Below are positions 44,636 through 45,433 of a stretch of 64,000 bases of DNA, one piece after another (the first letter of the stretch is position 1; each line of letters opens with the position of its first letter). Origin of the DNA: Escherichia phage Pu-Krd-SF3. The translations under genes and the position numbers were made by a program. Location: the sequence record PQ249397. The stretch is one strand, 5' to 3'. Below the pieces are notes generated by a model, which saw nothing but the letters and a program-made list of their open reading frames with translations, was not told the DNA's origin and searched no databases.

Positions 44636-44969
44636 AATTTTGGTTTTATGTGTAGGATTAATTTCATTTTCTGCGTTAGCAGATATATCATATTCTGAAG
44701 TTAGAGAGTATGTAAACCGTACTGCCGCGGATTATTGTGGGAAAAATAAAGCATGCCAAGCTGAATTTGCGCAGAAATTAATATATGCATATAAAGACGG
44801 AGAAAGAGATAAATCAAGCAGATACAAGAACGATACTTTATTAAAACGATATGCTAAAAAGTGGAATACCTTAGAATGTTCAGTTGCGGAGGAGAAAGAT
44901 AAAGCCGCTTGTCATTCAATGGTTGACCGTTTGGTAGATTCTTATAATCGAGGATTGAGTACTAAATGA
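44628..44969 (+). CDS. Secreted Cys-containing small protein
   Basis: 113 aa; signal peptide MTKILVLCVGLISFSALA; four Cys in mature part. Confidence 0.4.
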   Translation: MTKILVLCVGLISFSALADISYSEVREYVNRTAADYCGKNKACQAEFAQKLIYAYKDGERDKSSRYKNDTLLKRYAKKWNTLECSVAEEKDKAACHSMVDRLVDSYNRGLSTK

Positions 44970-45433
44970 TTGTAAAATATATCAAGGGCGATATTGTCGC
45001 CCTTTTCACTGAAGGTAAAACTATTGCGCATGGATGCAATTGTTTTCATACTATTGGTTCAGGCGTAGCGGGTCAATTAACCAAAGCTTTCCCTAAAATT
45101 TTGGAAGCTGATAAATTACAGACTGAATGGGGTGATGTAACTAAACTTGGTTCTTATTCAGTCTATGAAAAATACTTTAGGACTCATAAAGCTTACTGCT
45201 TTAATCTTTATACTCAATTTCAACCAGGGCCAAATTTTGAATATTCCGCTTTAATGAATTGTATGTTAGAATTAAATGAGTTTGGTGAAAATAAACTGAT
45301 TAAACCTACAATCTATATGCCTAGGATTGGTGCAGGCATAGGTAAAGGGAACTGGGATATTATTGAGGGGATTTTAGATACATATTCCTCTAAATTAGAA
45401 ATTGTGATTGTTGATTGGGAACCATTATTATGA
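44966..45433 (+). CDS. Macro-domain protein (ADP-ribose binding/processing fold)
   Basis: 155 aa; GDIVAL...AHGCNCFHTIGSGVAGQL resembles the macro-domain N-terminal motif. Confidence 0.5.
   Translation: MIVKYIKGDIVALFTEGKTIAHGCNCFHTIGSGVAGQLTKAFPKILEADKLQTEWGDVTKLGSYSVYEKYFRTHKAYCFNLYTQFQPGPNFEYSALMNCMLELNEFGENKLIKPTIYMPRIGAGIGKGNWDIIEGILDTYSSKLEIVIVDWEPLL

Follow-up and report, generated by a model that had tools for sequence, protein, structure and literature searches.

What does a small macro domain do for a phage of the T4 type, and on which ADP-ribose would it act? The question is raised by Escherichia phage Pu-Krd-SF3 (record PQ249397), of which we analyzed a stretch of 64,000 nucleotides, here called the window. 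The listing of its open reading frames (ORFs) gives, on the plus strand at 44966..45433, an ORF of 155 codons running from ATG to TGA. A preliminary description made from the sequence had placed a 155-residue macro-domain protein at exactly these coordinates, upstream of tk, quoting the N-terminus MIVKYIKGDIVALFTEGKTIAHGCNCFHTIGSGVAGQL that the translated ORF also has, and had suggested that it could reverse a host defense based on ADP-ribosylation, clear signals derived from ADP-ribose, or serve the phage's own ADP-ribosylation program. Judged by sequence and gene order, the window belongs to a T4-like Tequatrovirus and the ORF is the ortholog of T4 tk.4. The analysis below leads us to consider its product, Tk.4, most probably an orphan, antitoxin-like DNA ADP-ribosylglycohydrolase that strips the ADP-ribose installed by DarT2 from thymidines of single-stranded phage DNA.

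The window protein and T4 Tk.4 have equal length and are identical at 152 of 155 residues (98%), the substitutions (window residue first) being T15/A, T19/N, and I30/M. The near-identity of sequence, the shared place in the gene order after vs and before tk.3, and the ATGA overlaps at both ends, which T4 has as well, assign the ORF to the T4 Tk.4/AdfM orthologous group, as the same gene in a sister phage. Over the surrounding 2.7 kb, the sequence matches that of Escherichia phage Pu-Krd-SF4 (PQ759884.1; source piglet faeces, with E. coli B as host) at 100% identity; T4, T2, and hundreds of further Tequatrovirus genomes match it at about 98%. In PQ759884.1 a coding sequence (CDS) with identical boundaries is labeled "phosphatase", the tk.4 record of T4T carries the note "contains A1pp phosphatase motif", and a 2006 publication describes an A1pp/macro motif in the orthologs of tk.4 (PMC1524935). 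The preliminary description was thus correct about the macro domain, but it missed the identity with T4 tk.4, a gene annotated as A1pp/macro since at least 2006. The function of this gene has also been addressed by a recent preprint, in which tk.4 was the single significant hit of a T4 transposon library on a DarTG2-expressing host, a clean T4 tk.4 knockout was sensitized to DarTG2, the predicted structure was compared with DarG of Mycobacterium tuberculosis (Mtb), and the gene was renamed adfM, for anti-DarT factor Macrodomain (bioRxiv 10.1101/2025.11.20.689424). The feature is therefore already known and adds no new biology, being a known gene with a function assigned in 2025. Among the roles suggested beforehand, the reversal of host ADP-ribosylation-based defense is the one demonstrated genetically for this 98%-identical ortholog, by the transposon hit and the DarTG2-sensitive knockout; we found no support for the clearing of ADP-ribose-derived signals, since the sole phenotype found is the anti-DarTG2 one, and none for service in the phage's own ADP-ribosylation program.

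Several comparisons agree on the fold. Pfam PF01661 matches Tk.4 at 25 bits (gathering cut-off 22; E=2e-5), the match spanning positions 2-113 of the 118 in the profile, and phmmer against PDB sequences finds BT1257, Poa1p, SCO6735, DarG, and TARG1. A profile of 101 Tk.4 homologs, with identity down to about 30% and used for all residue counts given here, matches BT1257 at E=1.8e-27, SCO6735 at 1.3e-22, TARG1 at 3.6e-20, Poa1p at 2.5e-18, Mtb DarG at 1.3e-17, and Taq DarG at 2.9e-16. An AlphaFold2 (AF2) model from the single sequence, with a predicted local distance difference test (pLDDT) score of 38.5, was discarded in favor of a run on the 101-sequence alignment, which reached a pLDDT of 94.5 and a predicted template modeling score (pTM) of 0.90. 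This model has the expected alternation of strands and helices and the three-layer alpha/beta/alpha fold with a central mixed sheet. Foldseek against the PDB returns TARG1, Poa1p, BT1257, and DarG, each with probability 1.0, and the nearest structural neighbors are TARG1, DarG, SCO6735/BT1257, and Poa1p, not MacroD, viral Mac1, or PARG. Our analysis thus establishes the fold as well as the identity of the gene: Tk.4 is a stand-alone macro domain of the ALC1-like/TARG1-like class. The family and fold call of the preliminary description is borne out by Pfam, the homolog profile, the AF2 model, and Foldseek alike, and the Gly-rich phosphate-binding loop, whose loss it had named as refuting, is present: both Gly-rich loops are intact and conserved among homologs. 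These relationships also bear on the idea that Tk.4 acts as a sponge or a hydrolase for immune signals derived from ADP-ribose, such as gcADPR or His-ADPR of Thoeris. All of the nearest structural relatives remove ADP-ribose from macromolecules, no experiment links Tk.4 to such signals, and the one phenotype found concerns DarTG2, so we regard this idea as extremely improbable.

The residues of the active site add further detail. In the motif that ends the active-site strand, His22 is kept in 99 of 101 homologs and Gly23 and Asn25 in 100 each; Asn25 aligns with SCO6735 Asn27 and with the conserved Asn of DarG, and His22 with SCO6735 His24 and Poa1p His23. In the second Gly-rich loop, P119 and G122 are invariant, I121, G124, G128, and W130 are each kept in at least 97 of 101, and the counterpart of the loop in BT1257 and SCO6735 reads PRIGCGLAGG(K/T)W. 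In profile hidden Markov model (HMM), HH, and MAFFT alignments, Gln84, invariant in all 101, occupies the column in which TARG1, DarG, and PhiKZ gp104 have the catalytic Lys (Lys84, Lys80, and the Lys of the FPTK motif, respectively). A Gln at this catalytic-Lys position also defines SCO6735 and BT1257, and Tk.4 shares with SCO6735 this Gln and the conserved Asn. Other marks of SCO6735 are missing: its Lys34 corresponds to Ser32 (Ala or Ser in 92 of 101 homologs), and the mobile loop after Gln84 is about six residues shorter than the SCO6735 loop that bears Lys89 and Lys94. The counterpart of SCO6735 Val25 (Val/Ile) is Gly23, a side-chain change that neither confirms nor excludes the role proposed for this position, which is backbone-mediated. 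Because Lys34 and the extended Lys loop are absent, we place Tk.4 in a separate phage clade and not among SCO6735 orthologs; as far as its residues indicate, it is neither DarG-type nor strictly SCO6735-type, but a member of a phage clade with a Gln-type catalytic position.

Comparison with characterized systems places this clade more precisely. SCO6735 (Streptomyces coelicolor, PDB 5e3b) and BT1257 (Bacteroides, 2afc/2fg1) are stand-alone Gln-type ALC1-like macrodomains, 21-29% identical to Tk.4, but they are cellular proteins and not phage-borne. Human TARG1/OARD1 (4j5r) has a Lys84/Asp125 dyad where Tk.4 has Gln84 and Gly126. The DarG macrodomain of DarTG2 (PDB 5m31/5m3e, 5m3i, 7omu) is 19-22% identical to Tk.4 and carries its catalytic Lys80 in an FPTK motif, in place of which Tk.4 has Gln84; moreover, DarG is a two-domain protein of about 340 residues with a C-terminal DarT-binding domain and is encoded beside darT, whereas Tk.4 has 155 residues, lacks that domain, and has vs and tk.3 as gene neighbors, with no adjacent darT. 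In keeping with this, the DarG model NCBIfam NF048014 scores 26.6 bits against Tk.4, where its cut-off is 250, and matches over model positions 2-146 of 338, and the PADLOC DarG model matches over positions 2-145 of 329. A functional parallel is PhiKZ gp104, likewise a phage-encoded stand-alone macrodomain that counters DarTG2, which is imported into the phage nucleus. It was named "AdfM" in a paper (Cell Rep 2026) showing in vitro removal of DarT2-installed ADP-ribose from a TNTC oligonucleotide, with activity lowered by mutation of the Asn, a paper in which Tk.4 is unmentioned (PMC13309987). However, gp104 is only about 16-19% identical to Tk.4 and is DarG-type, with the FPTK Lys and its best PDB matches to DarG at E=9e-25. 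Given this low identity and the fact that the best solved relatives of gp104 are DarG, the two phage proteins appear, from their sequences, to be independent recruits from different macrodomain branches.

Biochemistry of the Gln-type relative shows what such a site can do. SCO6735 cleaves thymidine-linked ADP-ribose off single-stranded DNA more efficiently than DarG or TARG1 and rescues cells from DarT; its Q85A/E variants are inactive and N27S is almost inactive, and the proposed mechanism is water-mediated, with the Gln positioning the distal ribose and the backbone carbonyl of Val25 positioning the catalytic water (PMC9411070). Activity on this DNA mark has thus been shown for a Gln-type relative and, in gp104, for a Lys-type phage protein (PMC13309987), and from these we infer DNA glycohydrolase activity of Tk.4 and a catalytic role for Gln84. 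Under this reading, tk.4 would be expressed early, sharing its transcription with the regB–vs–tk string of genes. When host DarTG2 is triggered, DarT2 would attach ADP-ribose to thymidines within TNTC-type motifs of single-stranded phage DNA and so block replication. Tk.4 would bind the ADP-ribose through its two Gly-rich loops and hydrolyze the N-glycosidic bond between thymine and ribose, leaving unmodified DNA and free ADP-ribose, with Gln84, presumably held by Asn25 as in SCO6735, in the place of the catalytic Lys. The invariant Gln at the Lys position suggests substrate positioning with water-mediated catalysis, and not Lys-dependent chemistry.

A number of points weigh against the glycohydrolase reading. 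The catalytic Lys of DarG and TARG1 is absent from Tk.4. ALC1 macro domains are ADP-ribose binders. They too carry a Gln at the Lys position (PMC9411070), so that this Gln is no guarantee of catalysis. Two features that matter for the DNA activity of SCO6735, its Lys34 and the long mobile loop with Lys89 and Lys94 (PMC9411070), are missing from Tk.4. The preprint itself grades enzymatic removal of ADP-ribose from DNA only as "seems likely", and the phenotype was measured in T4, a different phage from that of the window (bioRxiv 10.1101/2025.11.20.689424). The window allele, in addition, departs from the family within the first Gly-rich loop, where codon 30 (45053..45055) reads ATT, for Ile, as against ATG, for Met, in T4; Met stands at this position in 90 of 101 homologs, T4 included, and also in DarG, TARG1, and PhiKZ gp104, while SCO6735 and BT1257 carry Trp at the equivalent position. 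INPHARED contains no further record whose encoded protein reaches 99% identity with the window Tk.4; an exact-pattern search of IMG/VR for the Ile30 (ATT) form gave zero matches, but so did the T4 Met30 (ATG) control, which makes that search uninformative on rarity.

Finally, SCO6735 and DarG can also act on DarT itself, inhibiting it through direct contact (PMC9411070), so the genetic phenotype alone is no proof of hydrolysis. This raises the alternative that Tk.4 neutralizes DarTG2 mainly without catalysis, by binding and inhibiting DarT2 as an antitoxin mimic like AdfA or AdfB, with the macro fold serving as a scaffold. Catalytically dead SCO6735 Q85A, DarG K80A, and TARG1 K84A all inhibit DarT in vitro, SCO6735 most strongly (PMC9411070), and the evidence on T4 tk.4 is purely genetic, as this alternative would allow. 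Yet Asn25, Gln84, and both Gly-rich loops show little or no variation among homologs taken from phages with many different hosts. An ADP-ribose pocket so strictly kept is more readily explained by an unchanging small substrate than by a surface that must follow fast-evolving DarT2 proteins, and this argues against DarT2 inhibition as the sole mechanism. Tk.4 also lacks the C-terminal domain with which DarG binds DarT, as the partial matches to the DarG models reflect, and we consider inhibition as the main mechanism improbable.

T4 carries three ADP-ribosyltransferases; Alt, ModA, and ModB modify arginine, and macro domains of the class of Tk.4 are not known to cleave the Arg-ADP-ribose linkage. 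Could the main substrate nevertheless be ADP-ribosylated protein or RNA, bearing the marks of these T4 enzymes or of other host defenses, with anti-DarTG2 activity as one facet of a broader eraser? The presence of the three transferases would favor this, as would the many linkages on which the macro domain superfamily acts, and SCO6735 and TARG1 remove Glu/Asp-linked ADP-ribose from protein as well as acting on DNA (PMC9411070). On the other hand, the Alt, ModA, and ModB marks are Arg-linked and so fall outside known macro-class cleavage; possession of tk.4 does not free T4 from strong restriction by CmdTAC, an mRNA ADP-ribosyltransferase system; and the conditional phenotype of tk.4 found by HIDEN-SEQ is specific to DarTG2 (bioRxiv 10.1101/2025.11.20.689424). 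A main substrate of this kind is, in our judgment, quite improbable. A further reading, in which the T4-type AdfM clade is a distinct phage-specific third active-site type in the ALC1-like class, combining the Gln of SCO6735, a short loop of DarG/TARG1 length, and Gly at the "Val25" position, and perhaps acting on more than thymidine modified by DarT2, for instance on ADP-ribose carried by RNA or Glu/Asp-linked to protein, we consider rather unlikely. If it were true, T4-type AdfM would be a general eraser against several ADP-ribosylating defenses; such breadth could account for its occurrence in about 5% of sequenced phage genomes, spread over many host genera, and the rare Met30Ile allele might tune specificity.

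The labels attached to tk.4 in sequence records raise one more alternative, that Tk.4 is a small-molecule enzyme clearing nucleotide by-products, either an ADP-ribose-1''-phosphate (Appr1p) phosphatase of the Poa1p/A1pp kind or an O-acetyl-ADP-ribose deacetylase. The equivalent of Poa1p His23 is conserved, as described above. However, the "phosphatase" names have been transferred from the domain, and yeast Poa1p (6lfq), described as an Appr1p phosphatase, has Ser and not Gln at position 84, while its Ser30 (mutated in solved Poa1p structures) aligns with Thr29, which is not conserved (T in 37, V in 14, and A in 14 of 101 homologs). T4 RNA repair through Pnk and Rnl1 leaves no 2'-phosphate, and hence no Appr1p. 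A source of Appr1p is therefore not to be expected from that pathway, and the sole phenotype found is DarTG2-specific, which together make a small-molecule role very improbable.

By tblastn, Tk.4 homologs occur in 2,747 of 50,697 phage records, among them T4-like, rV5-like, Felix-O1-like, Ackermannviridae, and Pseudomonas PAK_P-like phages of many hosts, in agreement with a report of macro domains as the commonest ADP-ribose-processing domain in viruses, and the adjacency of vs and the macro gene is kept down to about 52-57% identity. Three homologs labeled as bacterial metagenome-assembled genome (MAG) or metagenome sequences (P0061, P0083, and P0093) all lie on T4-like phage contigs, amid genes for Rnl1, Pnk, a Dda-like helicase, dCMP deaminase, and T4 spanins. 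Among cellular homologs we also sought a close relative of Tk.4 linked to darT, such as a "captured antitoxin" origin would leave, and found none. In two contigs binned as "Bacilli bacterium" (GCA_051648945.1) and "Culicoidibacterales bacterium" (GCA_051660865.1), the macro gene is surrounded by genes of T4 type (Rnl1, Pnk, Dda-like helicase, dCMP deaminase, and spanin), and the contigs resemble T4-like phage sequence assigned to bacterial MAGs by mis-binning. On the 38-kb contig of P0093 (JGI sample 3300059473), the distant Tk.4-family macro gene lies within a few kb of genes for Acb5 (anti-CBASS), NAMPT/NAPRTase, NUDIX, and Ro60-vWA proteins, which looks like a counter-defense and NAD-salvage neighborhood in a T4-like phage.

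The gene order in the window, regB–vs.1–vs–tk.4–tk.3–tk.2–tk.1–tk–rI.1–rI, is that of T4T, with tk at 46011..46592 and three small ORFs between it and tk.4. The overlap of the vs stop codon with the tk.4 start suggests, from sequence, translational coupling of tk.4 to vs, and the tk.3 CDS begins 4 nt before the end of tk.4 in both T4T and PQ759884.1. The sigma-70-like match in front of regB is a weak candidate for an early promoter of the co-directional string from regB to tk; such matches are not enriched in the region by a consensus scan (13, against 16.4±4.3 in shuffled sequence). The coordinates of these features and of the active-site elements are collected in the table.

Table. Features of the tk.4 locus in window coordinates
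Feature	Position	Strand	Basis
tk.4/adfM CDS, stand-alone macro domain	44966..45433	+	ORF listing; identity with T4 Tk.4; CDS in PQ759884.1; Pfam Macro; AF2 pLDDT 94.5
Putative Shine-Dalgarno-like purine-rich GAGGATTGAG, 6-12 nt 5' of the ATG	44950..44959	+	read from sequence; same in T4
ATGA, overlap of vs stop codon and tk.4 start codon	44966..44969	+	vs ORF 44628..44969; likewise in T4
His22-Gly23-Cys24-Asn25, end of active-site strand	45029..45040	+	alignment; homolog conservation
First Gly-rich ADP-ribose-binding loop, I30-G31-S32-G33-V34-A35	45053..45070	+	alignment; G33 and A35 invariant
Gln84 codon, CAA	45215..45217	+	invariant 101/101; aligned to TARG1 Lys84, DarG Lys80, SCO6735 Gln85
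Second Gly-rich diphosphate-binding loop, P119-R-I-G122-A-G124-I-G-K-G128-N-W130	45320..45355	+	homolog conservation
ATGA, overlap of tk.4 stop codon and tk.3 start codon (tk.3 ATG at 45430)	45430..45433	+	sequence
Weak sigma-70-like promoter match, TTTACT-17-TATAAT, 5' of regB	43565..43593	+	consensus scan

Two further candidates were set aside. A minus-strand ORF of 97 residues at 45313..45606, overlapping tk.4 and tk.3 and unannotated in every record examined, was judged a mechanical ORF. A perfect 9-bp GC-rich inverted repeat, AAGGGCGAT ATT GTCGCCCTT, lies at 44984..45004, 18 nt inside the tk.4 coding region, with a locally stable stem of -13.4 kcal/mol; its 81-nt context folds no better than shuffles (z=-0.36), so it was dropped as a feature. 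The repeat is identical in T4, leaving no covariation to check, and may merely reflect the KGDIVAL codons. Among the neighboring genes, vs (valyl-tRNA synthetase modifier, 44628..44969) has 113 codons here and 115 in T4T, and its final sense codon is AAA in the window and AGA in T4; vs is the gene most strongly depleted in minimal medium in the HIDEN-SEQ preprint. Two genes 5' of tk.4, vs.1 (44090..44635), hypothetical in the source record, has a signal-like hydrophobic N-terminal segment, and its T4 counterpart is reported to match an SLT lytic transglycosylase domain. In T2, vB_EcoM_G8, and many other relatives, window positions 44000..46700 align in two pieces over about 3.07 kb, so that T2 and many relatives have about 370 bp extra, probably one more small ORF, between regB and tk, DNA that is absent from the window phage and from T4.

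One point may be of use for annotation and biochemistry. The gene is still widely mislabeled as "phosphatase" or "hypothetical protein", and two unrelated phage macrodomains now share the name AdfM, a collision that could mislead the transfer of annotations. As the catalytic residues of the two differ, Gln in the T4 type and Lys in the PhiKZ type, the chemistry of T4-type AdfM is not to be assumed from DarG. DarTG systems stop phages by ADP-ribosylation of phage DNA, and the T-even phages counter them with two orphan erasers that form a matched set: AdfN, a NADAR protein, opposes the guanine-modifying DarT1, and the macrodomain Tk.4/AdfM, most probably an eraser in the strict sense, opposes the thymine-modifying DarT2.
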